64,000 nt of DNA from a phage, in the NCBI GenBank assembly GCA_012813795.1, contig GCA_012813795.1_4087.1. The stretch is one strand, 5' to 3'. Under the pieces are notes generated by a model that had not been told where the DNA came from, did not search any database, and was given only the letters and a program-made list of their open reading frames with translations. The translations under genes and the position numbers were made by a program. Of the stretch, positions 2,885 through 59,382 are shown piece by piece; position 1 is the stretch's first letter, and the number at the start of each line of letters is the position of its first letter.

Positions 2885-2912
2885 ATTATACAGTACTGAT
2901 ATCTTCTGTCAA
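2885..2912 (-). promoter_or_regulatory. sigma70-type early promoter
   Basis: TTGACA-N16-TATAAT then GTTTATATCAAACG on minus strand. Confidence 0.55.
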
Positions 2913-3010
2913 GTATTAATCACCAAAAATCATCATATACCCAAACCAACAAACACAGATGACTAAAACTAACAATACCAACGATAATCTCTAAAGTCAC
3001 GTTTGCATCC

Positions 3011-3211
3011 TTAATCAATGATTTTATATTCACGATGACCATAGAAGCCAGCCTCAAGGATGTGATTACCATCAGCATCTTCCAAGTCCCAGCCACGGGA
3101 TGTTTCGGCAATAATAGTCATGATGTGACCTTTAGTGAAGGTTCCACTCATAGTAGATACGTCTTCAAGTAATTGAACCTGCTTACCAACATTTGTATTC
3201 GATTGAAACAT
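3011..3211 (-). CDS. hypothetical protein
   Basis: 66-aa ORF, N-terminus MFQSNT paralogous to 2134..2442. Confidence 0.4.
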   Translation of the reverse strand: MFQSNTNVGKQVQLLEDVSTMSGTFTKGHIMTIIAETSRGWDLEDADGNHILEAGFYGHREYKIID

Positions 3212-3299
3212 TTATTTTTCCTTTAAGGTTGGATATATGCCAGTGCACCAATACCGATAACAACTACAGTGAATACAACCAGAAATATATTAAGTTTCA

Positions 3300-9233: not shown

Positions 9234-9676
9234 GCTTGTTTGATTAAGTTAATTTGACTTTGATTTACAACTTCTTTTTTAGCTGCCGCTTTTTCTACCT
9301 TATCCATCACATAAACTTGTGCATCTTTATCCAACATAAACTTACCATCAATCAAGTTACCAAATACTTTAGAATTTCGTGCTGGGTAAGGACCAATCTC
9401 ATCAATGGTTCGTACTTGTTTATCTACAATGGTCGCTTTAATGAATCCAGTTTCCAGTACTGTTGTCATTACTGTCATTTCAATTGCAACAGGTGAATCT
9501 TCCCAGTAAGCCACCCACTTGGTAAAGCCACGATCTTTATCAGATTTTGTCGCTTTTAATTTAATAGAAGCATTGAAAATGTACTGTTTGAAGTTTCCTT
9601 CAACCACTTCACTGATACTCAAGTACCCTTCACGTTGCTCGGTATTGCGTTTAAATTGGGTAGCTAATACTGTCAT
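9218..9676 (-). CDS. hypothetical protein
   Basis: 152-aa ORF. Confidence 0.5.
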   Translation of the reverse strand: MTVLATQFKRNTEQREGYLSISEVVEGNFKQYIFNASIKLKATKSDKDRGFTKWVAYWEDSPVAIEMTVMTTVLETGFIKATIVDKQVRTIDEIGPYPARNSKVFGNLIDGKFMLDKDAQVYVMDKVEKAAAKKEVVNQSQINLIKQAWGLK

Positions 9677-9740
9677 GGTTGGTTCCTCATTAGATTATAA
9701 ATTAGTGTTGTGTTTCATTGGTAGTATCTTATCACTTCAC

Positions 9741-10205
9741 CTATAGCCTGTCAAGAACATCTGTAGTTTTATTTTGTAGTGCTTTTAGGATCAAACGAAT
9801 ATAGTACGGTGGTAAAACGAATCTTTCCATTGAGTTATATGAAAGATACATATCACTAAGTTTTAGTTCAGAACTGCTGTTACCTGGTTCTATAAAATGG
9901 ATCACCCCAGGATTTTTCATCACAACTTTGTATCCATTAACATTGTTGATAGCATTTCGACAAACCAGTTCAATGTTTGCTAAATCACTAATACTATAGT
10001 TTAGATTATATGATGAATGATATGAAGACACAACTAAAAATTCTTTGGGTAACAAATATGTCCAAAATAATGATTTAAAAAAAGCAAGATTTCCCTCAAA
10101 CTTAGATATAGATTTACTATATGCAATATGTTCAACATCATCAATGATAGAAAAAATCAATTGATATACAATAACAAATAGACTAATACATATCAGTGCT
10201 GTCAT
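9741..10205 (-). CDS. hypothetical protein with N-terminal TM segment
   Basis: 154-aa ORF. Confidence 0.5.
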   Translation of the reverse strand: MTALICISLFVIVYQLIFSIIDDVEHIAYSKSISKFEGNLAFFKSLFWTYLLPKEFLVVSSYHSSYNLNYSISDLANIELVCRNAINNVNGYKVVMKNPGVIHFIEPGNSSSELKLSDMYLSYNSMERFVLPPYYIRLILKALQNKTTDVLDRL

Positions 10206-10528
10206 TCATCAAACCCTCGTATGTAATTAAAAACTTCTACGCATTCTAATGTTTTTTCATCATCATTCATGTCATAGCCTTGAAGGAAATCTTCACGATC
10301 AACTCTCTTTGCCATCAAGTCAGTTTCTGAAATCATGGAATTGTAAAATGAAAACATATCCTTATAGTACTGCTTATTGTGTTGTTCATCCTTTACCTTA
10401 GCATAACCAGCACAATATGATGGGGATTTAACATCCTTCCATCGCACTTTATCAGCATAAACTGGATTGATGAAGCACGTAGTTAAGAATAGTACTGCTA
10501 CTATAGCCATGAAGCTCTTTAGCATCAT
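10202..10528 (-). CDS. hypothetical secreted protein
   Basis: 108 aa with signal-peptide-like N-terminus. Confidence 0.5.
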   Translation of the reverse strand: MMLKSFMAIVAVLFLTTCFINPVYADKVRWKDVKSPSYCAGYAKVKDEQHNKQYYKDMFSFYNSMISETDLMAKRVDREDFLQGYDMNDDEKTLECVEVFNYIRGFDE

Positions 10529-11469: not shown

Positions 11470-12627
11470 ATGTCTAGAACCATAGCTGATACCGGTGAAT
11501 ACAAGTTCGGTGAATGTGGTTATATCGTGGATGGTGCTTTACTAATCGATGGAACCAAATTAAAAAATATAAGAATTTACAGGCAGCGTAGTTATAAACT
11601 ATTTGATATTATAGATCCTGTAACAAACAAAATATATAGACGCGTACAAATTACTTCTTATGATAAGGTAGGAAATTTACTTAACTATAAAAAATCCGAT
11701 GATGAATTATTGGATGTTATTGCAAAGAATACTTTCTTTGTTCGTGGATACACTAATCATTTGAAACCTACAGATCCAACAGGGTTTGTAACTAAATTCC
11801 AATTACACAAAACGATATTTGGAAACTCCGATGTTACTTTTGATATGTACACACCAACTTGTTCAATTATTGATCGTGATATAGATAATATTTTAGTTAA
11901 TCCAGTTCATGTTGGGGATACTGAAATATCGGGTAAACTGTTCAATGCTGGACAAACCATCAACACAACAGGAATGACAATTACTGTAAAATTTTCAGAT
12001 GGGTCCGAGTATTCAACGAGTACAATAGTCAATGATGAATTCATTATAACAGTACCGGAAATTATGTCAACCGGAACTGCAACTATAACTCTTACGTCTG
12101 ATTTTTATAATACAAAAAGCGTTGATTTTAATATATTAGATGTTGGTGAGGATGACGGCTTAACCACTACTGTATCAGTAACTACATTCAGTACTGGGCC
12201 TGGTGATGTGTATAGTGCAAGAATCCCTGCTGATGTACATGGGCGTGGTAATAACTTAGCTATTCAGGTATATGATAATCATAATAATTTGGTATCTGCT
12301 GGCATTAATGTTAGCTCTACTGGTGATATTACAGTAACAATATATGATAATACACCTATAAAACTAAGTATATTGGGTAGTACATTACAAACATCTCCAT
12401 ATGTACAAAATGTCTCTTCTTCTGAATGGACACGCAATGGTGAAATGTATGAAATTAATATATCCAGTACTGGACACTTAAAAGAATTTGTTTTTGTTCA
12501 AGTATATGATAATAACAATGATGCAGTTCAATGTGAAATTCAGCTTGATGATGATGAGAATGTTACAATTACTTCTGTCGAAGCATTTGATGCAAAGATT
12601 GTAGTGTTTGGTTATAACAAACAATAA
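11470..12627 (+). CDS. hypothetical beta-rich repeat protein (possible virion or surface protein)
   Basis: 385 aa, the only substantial plus-strand gene; GAGGGG RBS; Thr/Ser-rich repeated beta-like segments; hairpin terminator right after stop. Confidence 0.55.
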   Translation: MSRTIADTGEYKFGECGYIVDGALLIDGTKLKNIRIYRQRSYKLFDIIDPVTNKIYRRVQITSYDKVGNLLNYKKSDDELLDVIAKNTFFVRGYTNHLKPTDPTGFVTKFQLHKTIFGNSDVTFDMYTPTCSIIDRDIDNILVNPVHVGDTEISGKLFNAGQTINTTGMTITVKFSDGSEYSTSTIVNDEFIITVPEIMSTGTATITLTSDFYNTKSVDFNILDVGEDDGLTTTVSVTTFSTGPGDVYSARIPADVHGRGNNLAIQVYDNHNNLVSAGINVSSTGDITVTIYDNTPIKLSILGSTLQTSPYVQNVSSSEWTRNGEMYEINISSTGHLKEFVFVQVYDNNNDAVQCEIQLDDDENVTITSVEAFDAKIVVFGYNKQ

Positions 12628-32272: not shown

Positions 32273-34171
32273 TTAAAAGAATATATCACGTAGTAAATGT
32301 TCTATAACAGGTGCTGTCCAGCCATTACCAAGCATTTTGTACGCTTGTGTTGAACTACTAACTTTGAAGTAGTTTACATCAATTCCTTGCAACATGCAAC
32401 ACTCTTGTACTGTTAAATGACGATAGTCCACATTTCGTTTACCCTTCTCAATCAGGAAGTTCCTGTTGATATCAGGGTCTTTGAAAACGATTTGTCTTCT
32501 TGACTTATTGAAGTACTGATTCGGATCTCCACCCTTGAAGTAGTTTGCGTCAATGCAATATGATTTATCACGATCAGTATACCAATTACCAGTTAGTATA
32601 TCTTGTAATTTTGGTGCTAAAATAAGAGGTTTTGGAATAAACAACTTATCCGAGCTATACCAGTAGTAACGTTGGCGATAATGTGCTGTATAATTTTGTG
32701 AATTTATCAAAATTGGTGTCATTTCCAACACGCCATTGATATAATCCTTGAAATCTTCCTTCATCTTAACATTCTCAAAAAGAACTTTCAAGTTAGGATT
32801 GAGACTTTTTATGTGCTGGTAAATATCAACCATTGTATGGAATAACATACCACGAGGATCATTCACACCGCCTTGTTTCCCAGCAACTGACCACGCTTGG
32901 CAGTTATGAACTACAATATTGTTCGCCGTATATGTGTTATCTACTGCAACTTCAATATTGTAAACGGTTTTCCATTCTCCGGTTGTGGTGTTCGATTTAA
33001 CACCTTTTACCCATGAATATGACCCATCATCATAGAATGCTTCATCTTTTCGGTGCTTTTCTTTTTTGTATGTTAATACGTAATACGGCTTCTGATTAAC
33101 AACACGTTCTTCTATAACTTTTGTTTCAGACGGTTTAAAGTATGTTATGTTAGAATGACGACCATACACATTCATAATTAGTTGTTGTATACCAAGAATA
33201 ACATTCTTTGATGTTGATGTAAATTTTAAACAATCATCTTTCTTGTCATGGTGACCATCTGCGTCAAAATAACCATCAATGAATGCTTTCTGATTAGCGA
33301 TACTTTCAGTGAAAAGTGTGGGGTGTACTTGTTTATTTGAAGCACCCTTACCCATTTGTTCACAAAATTCAACTAGTTCTTTTGAACAAATATAGAATTT
33401 ATAAGATGTTCTTTCTTTAACAAAATTATATTTCATATTCATACCATCAAAACATGAAACCAATTCATCAAATTCATCATGAGCACAGCAAATAAAAACA
33501 CGATATTGATAACTATTTTTTCTATTTTGTCGTTTTACTTTGTAAGTCCATCCATCACCCATAAATCTACCCATGAAATACCAAAAGCTTTCACTCTTGT
33601 TATGTTGAAAATTCACATTACAACGAACATTACATATAGCATGTTCTTCTGTGAGTTCATGTGCATCGATCCATGTAGGTTCTGTATATTCACGAACATA
33701 TTGTCGTTTTTCATTATCCCACTTCTTGCTCATTTTTCTCGCATAAAATGGATGATTATCAGTGCATTCAATTGGTATATGTCCCTGACCTGTGATGATT
33801 CTTGTTGGTGCAATCTTGCTACCAATACTCAATACTTTTTGGTATTGTCCAGTGTGTGTAAGAACCATATCACCAATTTTTATATCTTTTATATCTTTAT
33901 GACCTTCATTTGTCATGATCATGGTTCCTGCTGGGAAGCAAGGAAAACCACCCATCAGAAGATCTATCTTGTCCCATTCGATATCCCATTCTTTCCATCT
34001 AGTTACATCACCCAATTGGATGATATCAGGAAAGTTAGCCTGGGATTCAGCTATAGCAAATTTATCAATTTCAGATGAGTAGTACTTTTCAACTGGTATT
34101 CCTGCACTTTGCAAGGCCATATACCCAACACTCATCCCATTGAATAGTGATAGTACACGTATCGGTTCCAT
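32273..34171 (-). CDS. DNA (cytosine-5)-methyltransferase interrupted by an in-frame intein
   Basis: Motif I LFNGMSVG, then GGFP | intein | CQAWSVAG restores the catalytic PCQ motif; ENV motif follows. Confidence 0.85.
   Translation of the reverse strand: MEPIRVLSLFNGMSVGYMALQSAGIPVEKYYSSEIDKFAIAESQANFPDIIQLGDVTRWKEWDIEWDKIDLLMGGFPCFPAGTMIMTNEGHKDIKDIKIGDMVLTHTGQYQKVLSIGSKIAPTRIITGQGHIPIECTDNHPFYARKMSKKWDNEKRQYVREYTEPTWIDAHELTEEHAICNVRCNVNFQHNKSESFWYFMGRFMGDGWTYKVKRQNRKNSYQYRVFICCAHDEFDELVSCFDGMNMKYNFVKERTSYKFYICSKELVEFCEQMGKGASNKQVHPTLFTESIANQKAFIDGYFDADGHHDKKDDCLKFTSTSKNVILGIQQLIMNVYGRHSNITYFKPSETKVIEERVVNQKPYYVLTYKKEKHRKDEAFYDDGSYSWVKGVKSNTTTGEWKTVYNIEVAVDNTYTANNIVVHNCQAWSVAGKQGGVNDPRGMLFHTMVDIYQHIKSLNPNLKVLFENVKMKEDFKDYINGVLEMTPILINSQNYTAHYRQRYYWYSSDKLFIPKPLILAPKLQDILTGNWYTDRDKSYCIDANYFKGGDPNQYFNKSRRQIVFKDPDINRNFLIEKGKRNVDYRHLTVQECCMLQGIDVNYFKVSSSTQAYKMLGNGWTAPVIEHLLRDIFF
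32903..33940 (-). mobile_element. intein with LAGLIDADG homing-endonuclease domain (residues 78-423 of the methyltransferase ORF)
   Basis: Starts with Cys (CFPAGTMIM), TDNHPF block, two LAGLIDADG-like motifs (FMGRFMGDGW, AFIDGYFDADGH), ends VVHN then extein Cys. Confidence 0.8.
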
Positions 34172-35910: not shown

Positions 35911-36287
35911 TGCTTTACCTTAGATAGAGCATAATTCATTATTGACTTGATTTTTTGTAAATTGTCATATGACATTACATGTTTTTCAATTAATGATAGT
36001 TGAAATAATTCTTCTTCAGTTGAATTCAAGTAAACTTCTGAACCATCATAATTTTCAAAATCATAAAGGTATGAAAGACGGTCATCTATATACCAACCAA
36101 TCCATTCAATGGTGTTTCTTTCTTTGAAAACACAAGTATATGGATTATCTCTTGAATCTAAGGTTATGGTTAAACGTAAACATGAATTTGATTGTTGTAC
36201 ACTCTGTCTCCCATAATATACAGTAACCTCATCGGTTTCAATTGATTTATACAAAGCATCAATTTTTCTATCCAATTCATCTACCAT
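35907..36287 (-). CDS. EE-x-FFQ motif family protein
   Basis: C-terminal STEEELFQLSLIEKH. Confidence 0.55.
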   Translation of the reverse strand: MVDELDRKIDALYKSIETDEVTVYYGRQSVQQSNSCLRLTITLDSRDNPYTCVFKERNTIEWIGWYIDDRLSYLYDFENYDGSEVYLNSTEEELFQLSLIEKHVMSYDNLQKIKSIMNYALSKVKQ

Positions 36288-36691
36288 AATCTTACCCTTT
36301 TCAATGCTTTAACTTCGTCAGTGCACGGGAACACAACGAATCCAGTTAATGTTAGACCATCAAAATGGTTGAATCCATAATCATGAATCTTAGTTGCAGT
36401 GAATCCTTCAGCTTTCACTTTATCGAATAGATTAAGCATCTGTTCTTCAGATTTAGCCTTTAAGATAATCTTGCGGCGACCGTCCTGTACCCAAGTACTG
36501 AAATCGTTCAGGATCTTTTCATCTTCATCTCTTGGGTTCTCACCAACAGCATTACAACCACGAATTGATGTACCAGCAACTGTAACCGTGGACCAGATAG
36601 AATCAACCGCATGACCCGCCTGAGCAGCAAGCTTCCCAACTGGCATATCTAAGTCTTCACGAATGATTATGTAACATTTACTTACTGTCAT
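36281..36691 (-). CDS. pth2: peptidyl-tRNA hydrolase, PTH2 family
   Basis: IIREDLDMPVGKLAAQAGHAV and KIILKAKSEEQMLNLFDKVKAEGF match remembered PTH2 core motifs. Confidence 0.75.
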   Translation of the reverse strand: MTVSKCYIIIREDLDMPVGKLAAQAGHAVDSIWSTVTVAGTSIRGCNAVGENPRDEDEKILNDFSTWVQDGRRKIILKAKSEEQMLNLFDKVKAEGFTATKIHDYGFNHFDGLTLTGFVVFPCTDEVKALKRVRLW

Positions 36692-40822: not shown

Positions 40823-41024
40823 TCACAACCATAATATTAACACAATTCAACTCATGAAGAACAAGTTCATTACCACATAATGAACAAGATGTACTATAAA
40901 ATGGTGTTGGTAATTTTATATAGCCACCTCTTAATGGAAAGACTTGTTCCTCTATTGTCAACATTGTATCAGACGGAGTGACAAACATCTCACATTCAAG
41001 ACAACAAATTTTCACTTTATCCAT
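40749..41024 (-). CDS. small Cys-rich (zinc-ribbon-like) protein
   Basis: CCLEC ... CSLCGN pairs. Confidence 0.4.
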   Translation of the reverse strand: MDKVKICCLECEMFVTPSDTMLTIEEQVFPLRGGYIKLPTPFYSTSCSLCGNELVLHELNCVNIMVVNAISSYAKELVRNDSSFAHLWGFN

Positions 41025-41511
41025 TATTCATCTCCTTCAGTACAGTTCTGATATCCTCAAAGGTCTGAACAAACCAGCGGTGTTCATCACTAACATCAAT
41101 GATCTTACCACTATACAAATAATAATGCTCAAACTTCAGAGTACTTTTACGCAATCGTTCAGCAAGTTCAGGATTCTGCATTATTTTAGCACATATCGCA
41201 TCCTGGATTACATTTAATCGCTCAGGTGTCATCTCTATACGGTCATGCATATATGTGTTTGCAGCGGCTTTCGCTGCGGCTCCTGACACCTTTCTAAGTT
41301 CTTCATGCTGTTGTCCAGTGAGGAACCAGAAATAAAAAGACTCAACCGAAGGAAACCATCCATATGGTTCTAGTGTAAAGCTATGGGGAGAAAAATTAGA
41401 TAAATCTCTCCCTAGCTTAGTTTTCCCTTTACTGTAGATATTGATATGCGTGTATCCATCTTCAGTACAGTCAATGTAGTTTTTTGGTTGTTCATCAGGA
41501 AATTCAAACAT
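41017..41511 (-). CDS. NADAR/YbiA-like protein (possible ADP-ribose-processing enzyme)
   Basis: INIYSKGKTKLGRDLSNFSP ... PSVESFYFW resembles the remembered N-terminal core of E. coli YbiA. Confidence 0.55.
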   Translation of the reverse strand: MFEFPDEQPKNYIDCTEDGYTHINIYSKGKTKLGRDLSNFSPHSFTLEPYGWFPSVESFYFWFLTGQQHEELRKVSGAAAKAAANTYMHDRIEMTPERLNVIQDAICAKIMQNPELAERLRKSTLKFEHYYLYSGKIIDVSDEHRWFVQTFEDIRTVLKEMNNG

Positions 41512-41864
41512 TATTCTTCATCACCTGATGGTGTTCCGCGTAGTTTATCAAAATCTACCCAAATACCATGCTCATTTTTAAAACGACACTTACCATAGTA
41601 CCAGCTATAGTCAGTTTCGACACCTTGTGAATATGAGCGAACGCTACAATCATACATACCATAGAGATGGCCTTTTACACAGTATGTTCCAAATAACATA
41701 ACAACAAAAACAACGGCTGCACTGATTTTAGGAAAATCCATAACTAAATCGATAACAGAATTTTCTTGATGATTATCAATTTTAGAACGAATAGTTGAAA
41801 TAGTTTTCAGTACTAATACTGCTACAACCAATGAAACCAAAAGCACACATAAGTAAATCAACAT
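41511..41864 (-). CDS. hypothetical membrane protein
   Basis: 117 aa with two TM segments. Confidence 0.5.
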   Translation of the reverse strand: MLIYLCVLLVSLVVAVLVLKTISTIRSKIDNHQENSVIDLVMDFPKISAAVVFVVMLFGTYCVKGHLYGMYDCSVRSYSQGVETDYSWYYGKCRFKNEHGIWVDFDKLRGTPSGDEE

Positions 41865-42414: not shown

Positions 42415-42964
42415 GATTTAATACTTCTAAAATACTAAATTTATTGGAACCCTCAATGTCTTTAATAAATGCATCTGGATTGTCTTCTAATGAATATATT
42501 TCACCATTGATAAGCGTTTTTTCATGTAGAATCATAGCTGACATAATCTTATTACCCATAGATTCTTTCTCAGGCGTTGTACCATTACTATTGGTGAAGT
42601 AAATGAAGTTACTTGGTAGTTCACTCCACTCAACTGATATGATATTTTTCATAGCTGTTGTTGTACAAACTTTAATATAACGCTCAATAATCGTATTGGA
42701 TGAAGTTGCCGCAATTGTCATTGGATGACCGTGGGCAATATTTACACCGCTTGGAACTGCGATAGATGATGATATATTTGGAACATTGGATTCAATTTTA
42801 GGTTCTTTTATCCCTAAAATAAATTCATAATGACGAGCATGATGCTTCATTTTAAAAATTATAGTATCTGATTCAAAACTATAAGGAAGAATTATATTAT
42901 CATATGCACGCTTTTTGATTTCTGCTATACGCTCGAACAACTTAAGAGTTTCATTATAAAACAT
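42383..42964 (-). CDS. hypothetical protein
   Basis: 193-aa ORF. Confidence 0.5.
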   Translation of the reverse strand: MFYNETLKLFERIAEIKKRAYDNIILPYSFESDTIIFKMKHHARHYEFILGIKEPKIESNVPNISSSIAVPSGVNIAHGHPMTIAATSSNTIIERYIKVCTTTAMKNIISVEWSELPSNFIYFTNSNGTTPEKESMGNKIMSAMILHEKTLINGEIYSLEDNPDAFIKDIEGSNKFSILEVLNLEKDYKHAIR

Positions 42965-43013
42965 AGTTTATATCCTATTAAAAAGGGAGTACATTATTGT
43001 ACTCCCCAAATAC

Positions 43014-43568: not shown

Positions 43569-44701
43569 ACATTATTTTCCTTCATATAAAGACCAACAAC
43601 AATCGACAGTACAATGAGAATCAAAGATGCAGCAATCATAACATCTTTTCGTGGTTCCATTTTAACTGCCATGTATTCAAACTCTTTATTAGACAGACGT
43701 TCAAACTTAGTCTGTATATTATGAACCTGAACTTTAAGTAAGTCAAGTGTTAATACTTCATTTAACGCATCCATTCGCATTTTAGAATGCAATTCTTCAT
43801 TATTCATACCTTTAGCGAATGACGTACTATTGAATGATTTAACGACACCATCATTACTGATACCAAAGAACATAATCACATCGTTCTTCTTGCCACCACG
43901 CCAGATTGAGGTTACTGCATCAACAAAATTCACGTCATGATAATCATATACTAGTACTTGAATGTTTACTTGCTTTTGTGCACCTAATGTTTTTAACACT
44001 TCACGTAAATATTCATCATACCCACTCACATCGTAATCAGTTTTATTAATAACGTGGTGTGTTTTATAATAATCACTAATACTTGGATATTCAGGTAAAG
44101 ATTCCAGATATTCTTTATCATACATAGAAATCAAATCTTCAGTACTGAATAATGAGTGTTTATCTGCAAATAGATAATTTATGTATGTGTTTTCTGCTGC
44201 TGCATAATCACCATTTTTCACTTCTTGCCAGCGTGGTGGAGTTTGTGTTCCTTGTCTATTGACCCTTTCAATCTCAAACTTACCAACAGTGCTTTTAACG
44301 TACCAATCAATCTCATACGGATAGTCGAATACCTTATAAGATTCACATTCACGTTGTGAGCGACCTTTAGAATCATAGGTAGTCCAGCAACGCTCATGCC
44401 AAGTATAGTGTTTACAAGAACTTGATTGTGATGTGCAGTTCTCACGTTGGCTGTATTTCTCTGTAACCTGACCATTTAGAATTTCAACATCACGAAGTTG
44501 GCTGTAGTTTATCAAGTATGATGTTCCCAATACCAACACCGCTGCAAGAAAGCAAATTCCAGTATGAATTAGCAATTCCTTTGTTGTTATGGCAGTATGG
44601 TATTTGAACTTCATGATTAGAACAACTATCAAACTTGGTATTAGAAGAATTGCTAAGTTCATTGTGTTACCTTTAATAGTTCCCGCGTTCGTTGATTGCA
44701 T
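43565..44701 (-). CDS. hypothetical membrane protein
   Basis: 378 aa with N-terminal and C-terminal TM segments and a Cys-rich middle. Confidence 0.5.
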   Translation of the reverse strand: MQSTNAGTIKGNTMNLAILLIPSLIVVLIMKFKYHTAITTKELLIHTGICFLAAVLVLGTSYLINYSQLRDVEILNGQVTEKYSQRENCTSQSSSCKHYTWHERCWTTYDSKGRSQRECESYKVFDYPYEIDWYVKSTVGKFEIERVNRQGTQTPPRWQEVKNGDYAAAENTYINYLFADKHSLFSTEDLISMYDKEYLESLPEYPSISDYYKTHHVINKTDYDVSGYDEYLREVLKTLGAQKQVNIQVLVYDYHDVNFVDAVTSIWRGGKKNDVIMFFGISNDGVVKSFNSTSFAKGMNNEELHSKMRMDALNEVLTLDLLKVQVHNIQTKFERLSNKEFEYMAVKMEPRKDVMIAASLILIVLSIVVGLYMKENNV

Positions 44702-45374
44702 TTAAGCAATATGAAACCTGGATAGCTTCACGTGCTGCATCGAATAATGGGTGGTGAAGTTCTAGACCATAAAGACCATGATCAGCAACCATCTCCACAA
44801 ACTTTTTCAATTGTACATCAACAATGGAATCCATGTCAAATTTTTCATCTTCAGTTAGGCGATTCTTAACACTTCGGGCATTCTGTGGTGCATTATATTT
44901 CCACAATTCGCCCACACCAAACATTTTACGATGGTTTGCTTGAAGAATACTACAATCGAAGTGGCAGCCATTACCCCAAATTTCAATATTGTTCTCATTT
45001 CCATTAAGATCATAACGAAGTGAATTCCACAAATCAAGTACATTTTTTGTTTTATACAAATTGTTCTGACTACCGGAAATAATCTCAGGATCTGTCAACG
45101 TGAGTGTGCTAACTACTTCTTCATATGCACCTTTATGATCATTTTGACACATATTCATCCAAAAGTTCATTGAACCTGCATCAACTTTAAGACCAGCATC
45201 AATTTGTTTTTGGAATGGTAGTTTAACATATGCATAACGTGAGATATCTTTCATTGGGTTAGTTGGAACTAAAACAATTGCGTAATTTGGAATGATAATA
45301 TCATAACCACTACGTTCTGGAGTTCCGAAAGATTCAATATCAACTGCATAGTGTGTAACTTTATCTGCCATCAT
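44673..45374 (-). CDS. DEDDh 3'-5' exonuclease (T4 DexA-like)
   Basis: Exo motifs AVDIESFG, WGNGCHFDCSIL, HHPLFDAAREA; size about that of T4 exonuclease A. Confidence 0.65.
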   Translation of the reverse strand: MMADKVTHYAVDIESFGTPERSGYDIIIPNYAIVLVPTNPMKDISRYAYVKLPFQKQIDAGLKVDAGSMNFWMNMCQNDHKGAYEEVVSTLTLTDPEIISGSQNNLYKTKNVLDLWNSLRYDLNGNENNIEIWGNGCHFDCSILQANHRKMFGVGELWKYNAPQNARSVKNRLTEDEKFDMDSIVDVQLKKFVEMVADHGLYGLELHHPLFDAAREAIQVSYCLNAINERGNY

Positions 45375-45439: not shown

Positions 45440-46567
45440 TTACTTGTTAGCTTTGTCAGCAATTTCGCGAAGAGTTTCTTCAAGTTCGTAGGACAACTGT
45501 GCAATTTCATGTTTAGCACGTTCACGTTCTTCCTTACCTTTCTTCTCTTCAATCAGTACTGCTTCGATGCTATCAATCATTGTTTTGTGTACGTTACGCA
45601 ATGTTTTAATATCCACAATACCACGGTTATTAGCTTTAGCAGCATCTAACATATTAGTTGCTACCATTTTGGAGTTCACTTCAAGTAAACGGTTAGTTTC
45701 ATTATCAATCAAATTACCCAACTCGTTATCTTTGCGTTGGCGTTCAGAAATCAATTGTTCTGCTAGTTGTGATTTCCATGCAGGGATGACAACAGATTTC
45801 AGATCTTCAAATTTAGATACAGTGTTTAGATTCACTTTCTTCATACTCATCAGACGAGGGCCACTAAGCTCACACATCATGATAAGACGGCGAATCTTAT
45901 CTTCCTGTTTAGACAATGCTTCACAAATCATCTTCTGCTCTTGGATTGCGAAAGAATCCACATCAGGGTTCGCTTGCATTTCTTCCAGTTTAGCATCTTG
46001 AGTTTTTGTGACTTGTTCCAATTCAACCAGCGTATCGCGTAATTCAAATAGATAGGCTTTATTCTCATTGTAAGCAGTATCCAACCACTCACATTCACTA
46101 TGTTGGCGATTGATACCAACCTGGAGTGTGTTCATGATTTCATCAATCTGCTCTTTACTATTCTTGTACTGATCACCAACTTTCTGTTTTGCATTGACAA
46201 AGAGTTTTTTGACCCAACCTACAATTGATTTATCATCTTGTAGACTGTCAATATCAACAGCACGGGTTAGGGATAAAATTGTGGTAATTGATTTACCAAA
46301 TTCAGTATTGTCATCAGTGACGTTCACTTTTGACATGATTTCATCAGCCAAACGTCCTACACCTGCACCAGCAGTTGTTCCAATGGTGTTAATGTTCTGA
46401 ACAGTTAAAGACATAGTGTTACCTTTTGTATCTTTCAGTACAGGTAACGTTTTAGCCTGTTGGTCGAAAATATCACTCGCATCAAAAGTATTACCTTTGG
46501 TTTTGGTTGTAGTACGCTTAGTAGTTTTGGTAGTTGCTTTTTTTGGGTTGATTTCTTTCTCGGACAT
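45440..46567 (-). CDS. hypothetical coiled-coil protein
   Basis: 375-aa ORF; Thr/Lys-rich N-terminus. Confidence 0.5.
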   Translation of the reverse strand: MSEKEINPKKATTKTTKRTTTKTKGNTFDASDIFDQQAKTLPVLKDTKGNTMSLTVQNINTIGTTAGAGVGRLADEIMSKVNVTDDNTEFGKSITTILSLTRAVDIDSLQDDKSIVGWVKKLFVNAKQKVGDQYKNSKEQIDEIMNTLQVGINRQHSECEWLDTAYNENKAYLFELRDTLVELEQVTKTQDAKLEEMQANPDVDSFAIQEQKMICEALSKQEDKIRRLIMMCELSGPRLMSMKKVNLNTVSKFEDLKSVVIPAWKSQLAEQLISERQRKDNELGNLIDNETNRLLEVNSKMVATNMLDAAKANNRGIVDIKTLRNVHKTMIDSIEAVLIEEKKGKEERERAKHEIAQLSYELEETLREIADKANK

Positions 46568-50066: not shown

Positions 50067-50659
50067 TTATTAACATAATCAAAGCCGTTGTTATGCTTGT
50101 ATTCATGGTTATGACACGCACACATCATAACAGCAGGTATATCCAACTCTATAGCCGTTTCTATATTTTTAATATAATCGTCAATCAAAAATTTAACGTC
50201 ATATTGAGCTTTTAATTTCATTAGTGCTGATTTTTTGGATTCATACATTTCAATGATAATGATATCATCAAAAATACCCTCACCAAAGACATTAATGAGA
50301 TTCACATTACGGAGAACTTCTCCGTGTCCGAATGTACCCGATTTAGTCAGTACTACAAATTTATCATATGGGAACTTATCACGTAATTCTTGCATAATTC
50401 CAACCGTGTTATGTTCTACTGGGTCAAGTAGACCAAACTCATAAGAACGATGGTTGAAGTGTTTTAGAATCTCTTGCACTTCAGGTTGAGTAATTCCACC
50501 CAACCACTGACACAAATCATATTTTTCTGGATATGGTGTTTCTGGATGAATATCATAATGTTCTTTAACAAAATTATATAGACCACCAATGTGGTCCAAT
50601 AGCACTTCATCACAATCCCATACTACACAACGTTGTTTCATTACATATTTCCTGAACAA
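50021..50659 (-). CDS. HAD-superfamily hydrolase, likely 5'(3')-deoxyribonucleotidase-like
   Basis: VVWDCDEVLLD has the DxDx(V/T) phospho-acceptor motif. Confidence 0.55.
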   Translation of the reverse strand: MFRKYVMKQRCVVWDCDEVLLDHIGGLYNFVKEHYDIHPETPYPEKYDLCQWLGGITQPEVQEILKHFNHRSYEFGLLDPVEHNTVGIMQELRDKFPYDKFVVLTKSGTFGHGEVLRNVNLINVFGEGIFDDIIIIEMYESKKSALMKLKAQYDVKFLIDDYIKNIETAIELDIPAVMMCACHNHEYKHNNGFDYVNNWSELRLKIYELMKK

Positions 50660-51594
50660 ATCAAGTCAATTTCACATAGTAATGCACTCAGGTTCATCTC
50701 ACGATCAGAAACTGTTGATTGTTTGACAACTGCATCACGGATTTTAACCTTGATTTTCATTAGTGTGATTTCATCAGTACTGAACATTTCTGCATTACGA
50801 TACAGATACGAGAAAAACGCATCCATTTCGTCATCAGGGATATTTTGAACAATCTGCTCACGCATCTGACGAATGTTTCCCGCCTTTAATGCATCAACGA
50901 TTGCCGTGCGATACCCAGCAGAATTCTCAATACTGTCTTCTAGTTTTACTAGTTTACCATCAACTACTGAACTCTGCAATACGTTTAATGTTTTGCGGAA
51001 GTCAGGGTACGATGCATTGATGTATTGCTGCACTTGATCAATACTTTCTTCTGATGATAAATCTACACCCTCAGCTAACAGTACGTTGATGATACGGGTC
51101 ATAAACTGTTCCATATCATGCTTCTCGATTGTAATTACTTGCACACGAGAAATAATAGGTTTCAAAATTTTATGTGGCTCATTACTGGTTAGAATAAAAC
51201 GAGCATTCTCGTGATAATCTTCCATGACACGCTTCAGGCTACCTTGTGCTTTGTGGTTCATCTGTTCCATTTCTTCCAGAACAAATACACGATAACGTCC
51301 AAAACATGATAGTTTTGCGGCAGCGTCAATCTTATCACGCACAGCATCAATACCCTCATCTGACATGTTTAGAGTTGTTACATCACTTGGGTCCAGGTGA
51401 CCATTAGCTTCAAGTCCATTTAGTAGTACTTTAATCGCTGAAGTTTTTCCTGTACCAGCGGGACCAAAGAATCCAATATGTGGAATATTGCCAGTACAAA
51501 TCCATTCTTCCATCTTTTTACGAAGAGCATCATTTTTGAAAACGTAATCTTCTAGGGTTTGTGGGCGATATTTTTCAGTCCATAGTGTAGTCAT
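50641..51594 (-). CDS. gp44: clamp loader ATPase subunit (T4 gp44-like, RFC family)
   Basis: N-terminal EKYRP, Walker A GPAGTGKTS, SYPDFRKT motif; 317 aa vs T4 gp44 about 319. Confidence 0.8.
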   Translation of the reverse strand: MTTLWTEKYRPQTLEDYVFKNDALRKKMEEWICTGNIPHIGFFGPAGTGKTSAIKVLLNGLEANGHLDPSDVTTLNMSDEGIDAVRDKIDAAAKLSCFGRYRVFVLEEMEQMNHKAQGSLKRVMEDYHENARFILTSNEPHKILKPIISRVQVITIEKHDMEQFMTRIINVLLAEGVDLSSEESIDQVQQYINASYPDFRKTLNVLQSSVVDGKLVKLEDSIENSAGYRTAIVDALKAGNIRQMREQIVQNIPDDEMDAFFSYLYRNAEMFSTDEITLMKIKVKIRDAVVKQSTVSDREMNLSALLCEIDLICSGNM

Positions 51595-55956: not shown

Positions 55957-57369
55957 TTAATCTTCAGACTTAGGTGTAAAGTCCATTTTTAGTAATTCTT
56001 GTAGTTCTTCTTTATAGATATTCCAGATTTTATCTTGGTTATTAAGTAAATCATTATAACTATCCATTAGATCTAGATTATCTTGAATGTCTTTCAGTAC
56101 TACATCGTAATTATCTTTCGTCCAGCGATAAGATGGGAAGTTTACAATACTCTGGATATTCTCAGATGTAGCTTCGATTTCAGTATTAAGCGAAGTTACA
56201 AATTCAACCATTTCAGCACGGTTTGCAAAGCCTTTTACTTTACCAATCATGTCATTATCAAAACACTCTTTGATGAGAATCTTATAACGAACTTCGGCTG
56301 CACAGTCTTCCAGTTTCTTCTCATATCGCTTCACATAGTATTTGAAACGGAAATTTACGAAATCTTTAATCAGGTCAAGTGTACTGTCATATACACGAAC
56401 TTTACCATTTTCACCAAGAACAGTTAACAATTGAGTCATTTTCTTATTCAATCCAAAATACTCAATTACATCAGCTTCGGTCCATTTTTGAGAAATTCCG
56501 CGTGGTAGTTTGATCGTGATATCAATAACATCAGTACTATCATTATCGTAATCACGAATATCACCATCATCACTCATCTTGATTAGTTTTTCGATAAACT
56601 TTTCAATACTATAATTGGGTGGAAGACCTGTCACTTTAACAGTACTTGCGTCAATTACCTGTGCTTTACCATAAAATTCATATTTGTTTTCGTCTAGTTT
56701 AGTTACTATATCACTAGCACCAACCGATGCATAATATGGTGTCATTTCTTTAAGGGGTTTCCCTTCAATTGCACGAATACAGTTCTTTATTACATCCTCA
56801 ATCTTATGTGGAAGAATTGTACTCTTATACCCTACTGACATACTATCATTACCAAACAATGCTAATGGGATGATAGGTAGGAAGTGTACTGGTTCCATTG
56901 TAGTACCATCATAGTTCTCTTTCATTGGAATTATATCCATATCACGTAGAACTAATGCTTCAGTCGTTTTTGTCTTTTTGACGTAGGTATAACGAGCAGA
57001 TGCCGGAGTACTGTTAACTTGTGTCCCGAAACCACCACGCTTACCAATCAGTGGGTAGTTGTTAGCAACTGGACTAGCTAGGTTTTGTAATGTTCCTGAT
57101 GCAGATGTGTCACCATGAACGTAAATCCCATCACTGATCATACGACCTGCACATGAAACAGTTTTAATCTCCCCACTGATTTTGGATAATGTGAAGATTG
57201 CTTTACGTTGAGAACTCTTGAGTCCGTCAATCCCTGGGATAGCACGGTCAAGTGTGTACATTGAGTATTCTAATGATGTAGTATTGACATAATCTGAACT
57301 TTTATAATCAAGTAAAGTTAGAGTTAATTCATCAACATTTGTATTAGTGTTTTTCTTACTTTTAGCCAT
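55957..57369 (-). CDS. gp52: DNA topoisomerase II medium subunit (T4 gp52-like, GyrA-type)
   Basis: RAIPGIDGLKSSQRKAIF and active-site region SARYTYV. Confidence 0.85.
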   Translation of the reverse strand: MAKSKKNTNTNVDELTLTLLDYKSSDYVNTTSLEYSMYTLDRAIPGIDGLKSSQRKAIFTLSKISGEIKTVSCAGRMISDGIYVHGDTSASGTLQNLASPVANNYPLIGKRGGFGTQVNSTPASARYTYVKKTKTTEALVLRDMDIIPMKENYDGTTMEPVHFLPIIPLALFGNDSMSVGYKSTILPHKIEDVIKNCIRAIEGKPLKEMTPYYASVGASDIVTKLDENKYEFYGKAQVIDASTVKVTGLPPNYSIEKFIEKLIKMSDDGDIRDYDNDSTDVIDITIKLPRGISQKWTEADVIEYFGLNKKMTQLLTVLGENGKVRVYDSTLDLIKDFVNFRFKYYVKRYEKKLEDCAAEVRYKILIKECFDNDMIGKVKGFANRAEMVEFVTSLNTEIEATSENIQSIVNFPSYRWTKDNYDVVLKDIQDNLDLMDSYNDLLNNQDKIWNIYKEELQELLKMDFTPKSED

Positions 57370-57417: not shown

Positions 57418-59382
57418 TTATTCCATCCAGTTTTTACGATCATCAGCACGTTTCTTGTTGAAAATCAAATCTAATGTTTCACCAAGACGACCGTCATCAG
57501 TAATTGCTACTGCAACACTATTCGTAAATGCATCGCGGAAGTTACTTTTTTCGAGTGTTCCTAAACCTTTCGCACGAGTTGCTTTCCACCCTTTCCAATC
57601 TTCAGGAATATATTCATGGACGTTATGACCATAAAAATACTTAGATTCCTTACCTTTCTCCAAGATAATAAATGGAGTTTTGAATACGTATACAAACGGA
57701 TTATCAGGATCTTGGAATAATTCGGGCCAGAATTTGTACAAGAAGTTACAAACTAGTGCACCAATGTTCTTACCATCCTCATCTTCGTCCGCACAGATAT
57801 ATAGCTTACCGTAATTCAAATCAGCACGGTCAGCTTTAACTCCAGGGACCAAGTTGATGCTTGCCATTATATCATGCAATGCCATAGAATCCATTAATTC
57901 TTTGGTTTTCTCATTCCCACTAACGTTCATAATCTTACCACGCAATGGGAGGATACCATGAATACTAGGAATACGAGCACTTGCCATGTTGGAAATAGCA
58001 GAGTCACCTTCCGCAACCAATAGAATACATTGTGAACGGTCAGTTCCAGTACTATCAAGTAGTTTTGCAACTTTACCTTTCAAAAGTTTCTTGGCAAGGC
58101 GACGGTCTTCTTCTGCGTCTTTCTTATTAGTACGGGCAGCACAACGTTCAAAAATCTCATCAACCCATTCTTTATTTTTCTTGACCAATTCATCAAACCA
58201 GTCAGTACTCATAGCTTGCTGAATAGGACGAATTACATTTTCATTAGTCAACTTAGATTTAATCTGTGAGTTGAATGATGGTGCTTTCATTGTAGTTACA
58301 TTGTAAATCAACAAACCTTCTTCAATATCAGAACGGTTTGGTTTCATCTTACGCTTCTTCGCTTCTTTCTCTAATGCAGTTCCTACCCCTAAAGAGAAGA
58401 ATTTCTTGAAGGTATCTAGATGTGTACCACCATCAAATGCTGGAGCATTATTCACAAGACCATGCATATGGAAGTTTGTGTTCATACCAGATACAGCATT
58501 AGGTACAATATAAAACGTACTATTGAAATTGAATGATTCATCTTTAACATTCAATGACATTAGTTTTGAAGCATTAAAGAGTGCCTTTTCTGTGCTTCCT
58601 TTAATTGCAATACGTTTACCATTCAAGAAGATTTTGTATGTTGGGTTCGCTGCTGCCATTTCTTTTAGAATACTATAAAGTAATTCAGTTGGTAGCTTGC
58701 GATTAGGAAATACTTCTTTACTTAGGGTAAAGCGAATAGTTGTACCAGTTTTATCGGATTGTACTTTTCGAATAGTTGGTTCATGTACATGAAGTTCAGG
58801 GAACATAATTGTACCTTCTTCAAACTTCTGTGTATATTTGTACATACCATCATAACCGTCATTACTGGATTGCGTTTTATATGGACGTCCGGTTCGGTGA
58901 ATTTCAAGTTCTGCTTTAGAGCTAACAATCATAGCCACAGAACCACCTAGACCGTTTTGACCGATTGTTTCATCACGCTTAGAATCATCAAAGTTACGAC
59001 CAGTTTTAGTTTCAGTCATTACCATCGTACAGAGGTTTTTCTCATACTCTGGGACATAATCAATCGGAATACCACGACCATTATCACTGATTTCGAAGGA
59101 AAGGTCTTCTTCATTGAAATCAACTTTCAGTACTGGTTCTTTCGTACCAGCTTTTTTGAATTCATCAAGACTGTTATCAATAATTTCACGAGTTGCAGTA
59201 AGAATTGCAGGAACCCATTCCATATTTTTTACAGCATAATCATTTTCACCAAAAATCAGTACTTGACTTTCGTGAATAGAACGAGAACCAAGATACATCT
59301 CAGTACGTAGACGAGCATGTTGATAATCGTTTAGACGTTGAACGTCATGTTCTTGTAGAACAGCACTTTCTTTCTTAGCCAT
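57418..59382 (-). CDS. gp39: DNA topoisomerase II large subunit (T4 gp39 + gp60 equivalent, GyrB-type)
   Basis: GHKL motif ISDNGRGIP; Toprim motifs LLVAEGDSA and ICADEDEDG; 654 aa is consistent with an unsplit 39/60 gene. Confidence 0.85.
   Translation of the reverse strand: MAKKESAVLQEHDVQRLNDYQHARLRTEMYLGSRSIHESQVLIFGENDYAVKNMEWVPAILTATREIIDNSLDEFKKAGTKEPVLKVDFNEEDLSFEISDNGRGIPIDYVPEYEKNLCTMVMTETKTGRNFDDSKRDETIGQNGLGGSVAMIVSSKAELEIHRTGRPYKTQSSNDGYDGMYKYTQKFEEGTIMFPELHVHEPTIRKVQSDKTGTTIRFTLSKEVFPNRKLPTELLYSILKEMAAANPTYKIFLNGKRIAIKGSTEKALFNASKLMSLNVKDESFNFNSTFYIVPNAVSGMNTNFHMHGLVNNAPAFDGGTHLDTFKKFFSLGVGTALEKEAKKRKMKPNRSDIEEGLLIYNVTTMKAPSFNSQIKSKLTNENVIRPIQQAMSTDWFDELVKKNKEWVDEIFERCAARTNKKDAEEDRRLAKKLLKGKVAKLLDSTGTDRSQCILLVAEGDSAISNMASARIPSIHGILPLRGKIMNVSGNEKTKELMDSMALHDIMASINLVPGVKADRADLNYGKLYICADEDEDGKNIGALVCNFLYKFWPELFQDPDNPFVYVFKTPFIILEKGKESKYFYGHNVHEYIPEDWKGWKATRAKGLGTLEKSNFRDAFTNSVAVAITDDGRLGETLDLIFNKKRADDRKNWME

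Follow-up and report, generated by a model that had tools for sequence, protein, structure and literature searches.

In this work we analyzed a gene for a small NADAR-fold protein on a 64,000-nucleotide stretch of phage DNA (contig GCA_012813795.1_4087.1 of GenBank assembly GCA_012813795.1; this whole stretch is called the window below). The window is AT rich (34.5% GC), and nearly all of its open reading frames (ORFs) lie on the minus strand, including the one under study, whose translation contains the strings INIYSKGKTKLGRDLSNFSP... and PSVESFYFW that had led a first-pass annotation, made from the sequence alone, to propose a resemblance to YbiA and the NADARs. The start of the gene shares a single base with the stop of the ORF upstream (TAATG), and at its 3' end the gene runs 8 nucleotides into the ORF that follows. 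Between 39000 and 44000, the sequence shares 98.3% identity with Escherichia phage A4 (Asteriusvirus; 355 kb), and the window, which derives from a jumbo coliphage, is more distantly related to the group comprising 121Q, PBECO4, and phAPEC6. Orthologs are found in phage A4 (A4_101, annotated as a "hypothetical protein") and phAPEC6 (gp139c); there is no paralog in the window. We recovered 16 close homologs, and when 1.84 billion proteins were scanned in full with HMMER, 2,056 cluster representatives matched the family profile. The ratio of nonsynonymous to synonymous substitution rates (dN/dS) between the phAPEC6 and ph0011 orthologs is 0.044; against the 121Q-like and K64-1 orthologs, dN is about 0.15 to 0.17 with dS saturated. 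Given the annotated A4 ortholog, the numerous homologs, and this constraint, the ORF is a real gene under purifying selection.

Searches with the single sequence against curated collections were silent or nearly so. Neither Pfam model, NADAR (PF08719) or Phage_30_3 (PF08010), matched the protein even at an E value of ≤10; the NCBIfam model of the YbiA family, TIGR02464, scored it at 16 bits (E = 0.011) against a cutoff of 73.7; and a phmmer search of the Protein Data Bank (PDB) returned nothing relevant. With sequences this divergent, such searches are uninformative. The first-pass annotation had recommended a hidden Markov model (HMM) search with the NADAR profile and named the lack of a hit as grounds for rejection, and following it on this point would have wrongly killed the identification. 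A profile built from 17 family sequences retrieved only three chains from all PDB sequences, each of them a NADAR: E. coli YbiA (2b3w; E = 9.5e-4), the P. nicotianae enzyme PnNADAR (8bau; E = 1.4e-3), and the G. lovleyi NADAR (8bat; E = 0.43). With a domain-only profile of 40 sequences, 8bau and 2b3w were the sole matches below an E value of 1, and two lytic-transglycosylase chains appeared above that value; this domain-only alignment was used in place of a profile of 80 full-length proteins, which gave noise in the PDB search because fused domains dominated it.

Profile-profile comparison was more decisive. Using hhalign, 166 domains of the family aligned over 108 columns with 108 gp30.3-family proteins at a probability of 98.2% (E = 3.9e-14); the latter set came from a search seeded with gp30.3 of phage T4, and all matches listed carry PF08010. 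The same domains aligned with the single YbiA sequence at 92.2% (E = 5.8e-7). The window protein also falls in the same PHROG as T4 gp30.3, phrog_652 (1e-42 for the former and 9.2e-51 for the latter), and it matches phrog_1017, which is defined by YbiA, weakly (4e-4). An AlphaFold2 model of the protein was obtained (predicted local distance difference test score, 89; predicted template modeling [TM] score, 0.82), and Foldseek searches with it recovered the same three NADAR structures and no others, with a probability of 1.00 and TM scores of 0.52 to 0.62. On the basis of the fold, the profile-profile comparison, and the PHROG common to it and T4 gp30.3, also known as AdfN, we place the protein in the NADAR superfamily and, almost certainly, in its gp30.3/AdfN family. 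Thus, the NADAR resemblance proposed at first sight is borne out, and what needs revision is the type: the protein is of the gp30.3/AdfN kind, which has a histidine in its last strand, instead of the YbiA kind, which has a glutamate there. Likewise, the resemblance had been confined to the N-terminal 100 residues. The HMM alignments to YbiA and PnNADAR do span only residues ~15 to 123, at E values of about 1e-3, but the structural alignment covers almost the entire protein, with ~17 residues preceding the core. The C-terminal part, which had been described as divergent, is therefore part of the NADAR fold, namely, its last β strand and helix, and carries His129. The identification is solid, and the reversal of defensive ADP-ribosylation by phage NADARs is an already published concept; the gene is a previously unannotated member of the known gp30.3/AdfN-type phage NADARs.

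Structures and mutagenesis in three earlier studies (PMC11543638, PMC11125620, and PMC11825919) provide the catalytic set against which the family can be read. A glutamate binds the distal ribose (E43 in PnNADAR, E88 in the E. coli C7 NADAR, and E36 in T4 AdfN), a lysine seven residues beyond it (Pn K50, C7 K95, and T4 K43) binds the phosphate and adenine, and a G-R loop (G78-R79 in PnNADAR) binds the pyrophosphate. The first lysine is essential for efficient hydrolysis in the C7 NADAR, and a further one, C7 K115 (Pn K75), is dispensable in vitro and needed for the rescue of cells from DarT1 (PMC11543638). In the last strand, the YbiA family has Glu, the BC4488 (DarG1) family has Asp, and the gp30.3-type phage NADARs have His (PMC11825919 and PMC11125620). 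Measured against this set, both ribose-facing catalytic residues of the window protein, Glu57 and His129, are intact, as is Lys81, the counterpart of the lysine needed in vivo, and the usual pyrophosphate clamps are absent (Table 1). Position 64, where the first lysine would be expected, varies across the 166 domains (S in 43, G in 33, L in 28, and K in 26, with A also found). At the loop the family consensus is closer to the canonical state, with G84 in 152 domains, R or K at 85 in 116, and position 85 or 86 basic in 145; the window protein belongs to the 19 that lack a basic residue at 64, 85, and 86 alike. P126K is also rare (3 of the 166). Only two residues distinguish the protein from its A4 ortholog, P9 in place of Q and T86 in place of K, and the latter is private to the window, with K86 present in A4 and the other close relatives and conserved in the eight closest homologs. 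The window allele may accordingly represent a weakened natural variant, with K86T lying beside the pyrophosphate loop position. Because the canonical lysine and G-R loop are absent, activity on guanine-linked ADP-ribose is predicted rather than assured; the substrate-binding site is atypical.

Table 1. Positions of the features in the window. The six coordinates of the last six genes were listed jointly and are presumably in the order in which the genes were named.
Feature	Position	Strand	Remarks
NADAR-fold gene	41017..41511	minus	164 aa plus stop; ATG start
Glu57 codon	41341..41343	minus	ctc on the plus strand, i.e., GAG; equivalent to Pn E43, C7 E88, and T4 E36; 166/166 domains
Leu64 codon	41320..41322	minus	position of Pn K50, C7 K95, and T4 K43; Lys absent
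Lys81 codon	41269..41271	minus	equivalent to Pn K75 and C7 K115; 166/166 domains; register AKxxG(K/R) vs. Pn AKKLGR
Ala84-Asn85-Thr86 codons	41254..41262	minus	position of the Pn G78-R79 loop; no basic residue
Residue 86 codon	41254-41256	minus	T in the window
His129 codon	41125..41127	minus	H-Y-Y motif in last β strand; 164/166 domains; aligns with His of gp30.3-family KH
Upstream ORF	41511..41864	minus	117 aa
Possible transcription unit start	42953..43007	minus	terminator-like hairpin (43007-42984), then sigma-70-like promoter (42981-42953; 10/12)
Perfect sigma-70 consensus promoter	45436-45408	minus (coding strand)	TTGACA-17-TATAAT; overlaps hairpin (stem of 11 bp)
Perfect sigma-70 consensus promoter	40249-40221	minus (coding strand)	TTGACA-17-TATAAT
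Rv2179c-like 3'-5' exoribonuclease gene	44673-45374	minus	3 kb upstream of NADAR-like gene
385-aa ORF	11470-12627	plus	sole long plus-strand ORF
C5 cytosine DNA methyltransferase gene	32273-34171	minus
PTH2 peptidyl-tRNA hydrolase gene	36281-36691	minus
TelA-like gene	45440-46567	minus
Clamp-loader-like AAA+ gene	50641-51594	minus
Topoisomerase II subunit gene	55957-57369	minus
Topoisomerase II subunit gene	57418-59382	minus

The closest characterized relative is T4 gp30.3 (AdfN-T4; PF08010, phrog_652), whose DNA ADP-ribosylglycohydrolase activity acts against DarTG1. Both proteins come from large virulent E. coli myoviruses, and they share the PHROG, the NADAR fold, a stand-alone architecture of ~150 to 165 residues, the catalytic Glu, and the His that replaces the YbiA-family Glu. 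However, their identity is only about 22%, and the PF08010 HMM does not recognize the window protein. T4 AdfN has K43 where the window protein has L64, whereas it has Gln at the position of the invariant Lys81. Moreover, the window family is distinguished from T4 AdfN by an N-terminal motif, D18-G19-x2-H22-x-N24-x-Y26-S27, and by the frequent fusion of its members to DUF4326, SLOG, or Macro domains. The NADARs associated with DarG1/DarT1 (the BC4488 family, including the G. lovleyi protein 8bat and E. coli C7) have in common with the window protein the Glu and the equivalent of C7 K115, as well as a locally similar N-terminal motif ('LEISSKSKTTLGVDLSAF' versus 'INIYSKGKTKLGRDLSNF'). They differ in having Asp where the window protein has His in the last strand, and their long N-terminal extension is lacking in the window protein, which also has no DarT gene next to it. 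The similarity to the G. lovleyi NADAR is not significant (E = 0.43; absent with the 40-sequence profile), and a special affinity to the DarT1-associated class, considered on account of the motif match, was not borne out by the broader profile. YbiA and PnNADAR (PF08719 and TIGR02464) can be aligned with the window protein over residues ~15 to 123 and share with it an LSNF motif, the catalytic Glu, and the AKxxG helix, but it falls below all of the curated cutoffs, has His for the last-strand Glu, and lacks the equivalents of K50 and R79. Finally, AdfN-Bas32 and AdfN-Bas60, from the archaeal-like and the bacterial non-YbiA clades, are stand-alone coliphage NADARs with demonstrated anti-DarTG1 activity. 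They were found by DELTA-BLAST, which picked up their conserved NADAR domain, and they group apart from gp30.3; the window protein, by contrast, is gp30.3-like and missed by the Pfam NADAR model.

tblastn searches recovered the family in 531 phage records. The carriers include Asteriusvirus, RaK2/K64-1, jumbo phages of Erwinia and Xanthomonas, Ackermannviridae (e.g., Cba120 and Det7), and phages of Vibrio, Pseudomonas, and Ralstonia; among the 60 tblastn matches listed, no functional name occurs, and nearly all of the annotated ones are called a "hypothetical protein." We scanned the window protein and 79 longer relatives with Pfam and found in these 80 proteins DUF4326 (30 proteins), YAcAr SLOG (21), DprA-like SLOG (13), DUF488-N3a (5), and Macro (3) domains, along with matches to Phage_30_3 (2), NADAR (1), and an Rv2179c-like exoribonuclease (1; E = 2.6e-47). 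Iyer, Burroughs, Anantharaman, and Aravind have described such domain architectures for viral NADARs; in light of this match, the clade was very probably known to that group, although Pfam does not model it. The genomic contexts of two distant homologs (P0014 and P0015) contain no adjacent ADP-ribosyltransferase (ART) toxin. The second of these lies on a 952-kb metagenome contig (L004; features at 12276-12608 and 9379-10479), most of whose ORFs have no Pfam match, with a cREC_REC gene ~4 kb away and a Metallophos gene ~1 kb away; Iyer et al. have predicted that the cREC domain processes cyclic ADP-ribose and phosphate.

Between 42964 and about 40475 in the window, genes either overlap or lie tightly against one another, and the immediate neighbors of the NADAR gene are unknowns, two of which fall in PHROGs labeled "virion structural protein." None of the neighboring genes has an ART domain. 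A hairpin followed by a sigma-70-like promoter at the head of this block is possibly the start of the unit containing the NADAR gene. As the number of promoter-like sites (40) does not exceed that in shuffled sequences (40.8), this site is a suggestion only. Two sites with the perfect consensus may be strong early promoters in the small-gene block, and, subject to the same caveat, such promoters together hint at early transcription of the block by host RNA polymerase. In the 117-residue product of the ORF immediately upstream there are two hydrophobic segments, and its C-terminal ~50 residues are conserved and contain Cys; it looks like a membrane protein with two transmembrane helices. The label of WWE protein that it bears in the GenBank record of ph0011 and the RefSeq record of K64-1, which would have made it a partner able to bind ADP-ribose, was not upheld, as none of three copies matched the Pfam WWE model at an E value of ≤10. 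The gene is found in 70 jumbo-phage records, usually beside the NADAR-like gene (A4, the 121Q-like phages, RaK2/K64-1, and Erwinia phages); these phages are collinear throughout the neighborhood, so the pairing adds no independent support for a functional link. In phAPEC6 (L008), tblastn and translation show the 117-residue gene to be intact at 2904-3254 on the minus strand, and the record annotates only the 50-residue gp140c, which is probably a misannotation.

The Pfam census of the window additionally included intein/Hint/LAGLIDADG, sigma-70 region 2/3, Cpn10, DNA polymerase III alpha, and NUMOD4/HNH matches. It revealed no ART, Macro, Nudix, or SLOG gene among the 25 of 30 families listed. 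PADLOC did not match the window protein, but because it likewise misses T4 AdfN, its silence is uninformative. Against the background of about 110 minus-strand genes, a single long ORF of 385 codons is encoded on the plus strand and has no Pfam match at an E value of ≤1e-4; the two further plus-strand ORFs in the window are each shorter than 70 residues.

Taken together with the experimental precedents, these observations suggest, as the best-supported reading, that the protein functions as an ADP-ribosyl N-glycohydrolase that strips ADP-ribose from guanine in the phage DNA and thereby counters DarT1-type toxins; we put the likelihood of this full chain at roughly one in two. As phAPEC6 gp139c does not appear in the published virion proteome of 62 proteins, the enzyme is assumed to be made inside the infected cell, from the block of tightly packed small genes. 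The ADP-ribosyl adduct would be bound in the cleft between E57 and H129, where the N-glycosidic bond between C1'' of the distal ribose and the nucleobase, most probably at N2 of guanine in the phage DNA, would be hydrolyzed. In this manner the marks left by DarT1-type toxins (DarTG1) would be erased, permitting replication to continue. K81, the equivalent of the lysine linked to in vivo rescue in C7, is predicted to help engage the nucleic acid substrate. In the absence of the usual pyrophosphate-binding Lys and Arg, other conserved basic residues might hold the ADP-ribose (R35, K28, R73, and K109 are candidates), or the substrate preference might differ from that of canonical NADARs. Several published results are in keeping with this proposal. 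All four NADAR subtypes tested, T4 gp30.3 included, hydrolyze guanine-linked ADP-ribose in vitro (PMC11125620); three unrelated phage NADARs counter DarTG1 in vivo (PMC11825919); and DarTG1 occurs in strains of E. coli, the host of the window phage (PMC11543638). The hedged suggestion in the first-pass annotation of a counter to DarT-type ADP-ribosylation hence agrees with what has been published on phage NADARs (PMC11825919, PMC11543638, and PMC11125620).

Several lines of evidence weigh against this reading. Neither T4 gp30.3 nor YbiA rescues cells poisoned by DarT1 (PMC11125620), and AdfN-T4 requires further T-even factors (PMC11825919), indicating that activity in vitro would not guarantee protection in vivo. 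The substitutions described above, i.e., L64 for the lysine, A84-N85-T86 for the G-R loop, and the private K86T change, all lie at or next to positions that bind substrate in characterized NADARs, and the curated Pfam and NCBIfam models do not recognize the protein. With ART, Macro, and Nudix genes missing from the census, the local context does not point to ADP-ribose. Further, Iyer et al. interpret the fusion pattern seen in the relatives as denoting the processing of soluble ADP-ribose derivatives and not of DNA adducts.

This last interpretation leads to the main rival reading, under which the protein would be a NADAR-fold hydrolase of soluble ADP-ribose derivatives, such as cyclic or linear immune signals built on ADP-ribose or the toxic ADP-ribose metabolites produced by TIR, SIR2, or ART effectors, that blunts NAD-derived signaling defenses. 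The DUF4326, YAcAr/SLOG, DprA-like SLOG, and Macro modules found fused to the relatives are those assigned by Iyer et al. (2021 and 2022) to the processing of low-molecular-weight ADP-ribose derivatives; the homolog near the cREC and Metallophos genes and another near genes for a nucleoside hydrolase and a nucleoside deoxyribosyltransferase are in line with such a function, and the changed phosphate-binding residues could mean a different ligand. Nevertheless, the NADAR activities demonstrated in the cited work are all on base-linked ADP-ribose or riboflavin intermediates, T4 AdfN, as the closest tested relative and a member of the same PHROG, acts on DNA, and K81, whose counterpart is linked to DarT1 rescue in the C7 NADAR, is invariant; we consider a soluble substrate unlikely on balance, though a serious rival. 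It is less likely still that the enzyme reverses the ADP-ribosylation of RNA or of DNA bases other than guanine, for instance, cytidine-linked ADP-ribose or mRNA modified by CmdTAC-like systems. Some NADARs, including YbiA-type ones, do remove ADP-ribose from cytidine (PMC12945103), and Johannesman et al. suggest that some phage counterdefenses may detoxify other DNA- or RNA-ADP-ribosylating systems, but the three tested phage NADARs countered guanine-modifying DarTG1 and none countered thymidine-modifying DarTG2, in a study limited to those two systems. The fusion of one relative to an Rv2179c-like 3'-5' exoribonuclease and the presence of such a gene upstream in the window may constitute a weak Rosetta stone hint of an RNA connection, which amounts to one fusion in 80 proteins plus inherited synteny.

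Two further possibilities were considered. A phage NADAR, U56, reportedly binds ADP-ribose and acts against Retron-Eco1. By analogy, the window protein could be a noncatalytic ADP-ribose binder that inhibits an NAD-consuming defense effector. Johannesman et al. credit Carabias et al. (2024) with a phage NADAR that exerts its antidefense role independently of enzymatic activity, and catalysis could be reduced in the window protein, given that it has lost the canonical Lys and Arg. Yet the catalytic Glu and His are kept across essentially the whole family, which argues for chemistry, and since the lost residues themselves serve in binding, their loss does not favor a pure binder over a hydrolase; we regard this proposal as quite improbable. 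A YbiA-like housekeeping N-glycosidase acting on riboflavin pathway intermediates, or a regulator of the phage's own ADP-ribosyltransferases, is the least credible of the functions considered. The weak matches to TIGR02464 and phrog_1017 and the location of T4 gene 30.3 near alt would fit one or the other, but the protein scores far below the TIGR02464 cutoff, has His in place of the YbiA-type Glu, and comes from a window whose Pfam census showed no riboflavin or ART genes among the families listed.

The assignment of the protein to the gp30.3/AdfN-type NADARs offers a testable function for a gene that is called a "hypothetical protein" or is unnamed in the records examined among its 531 carriers. 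Several of the phage groups that carry it are candidates for phage therapy, in which resistance to DarTG-type defenses affects the host range. The variation that occurs naturally at the phosphate-binding positions, i.e., K versus L, S, or G at position 64, G-R versus A-N at positions 84 and 85, and K in phage A4 versus T in the window at position 86, could serve to probe what sets the substrate specificity of NADARs. More generally, a large branch of the superfamily escapes the standard Pfam and NCBIfam NADAR models, and surveys of counterdefense genes that use them therefore undercount NADARs. There is also a small but appreciable chance that this Pfam-invisible branch with the last-strand His acts on a substrate other than guanine-ADP-ribosylated DNA, such as a soluble NAD-derived immune signal or ADP-ribosylated RNA; were this true, the branch would be a new class of phage counterdefense enzymes with an unrecognized target.

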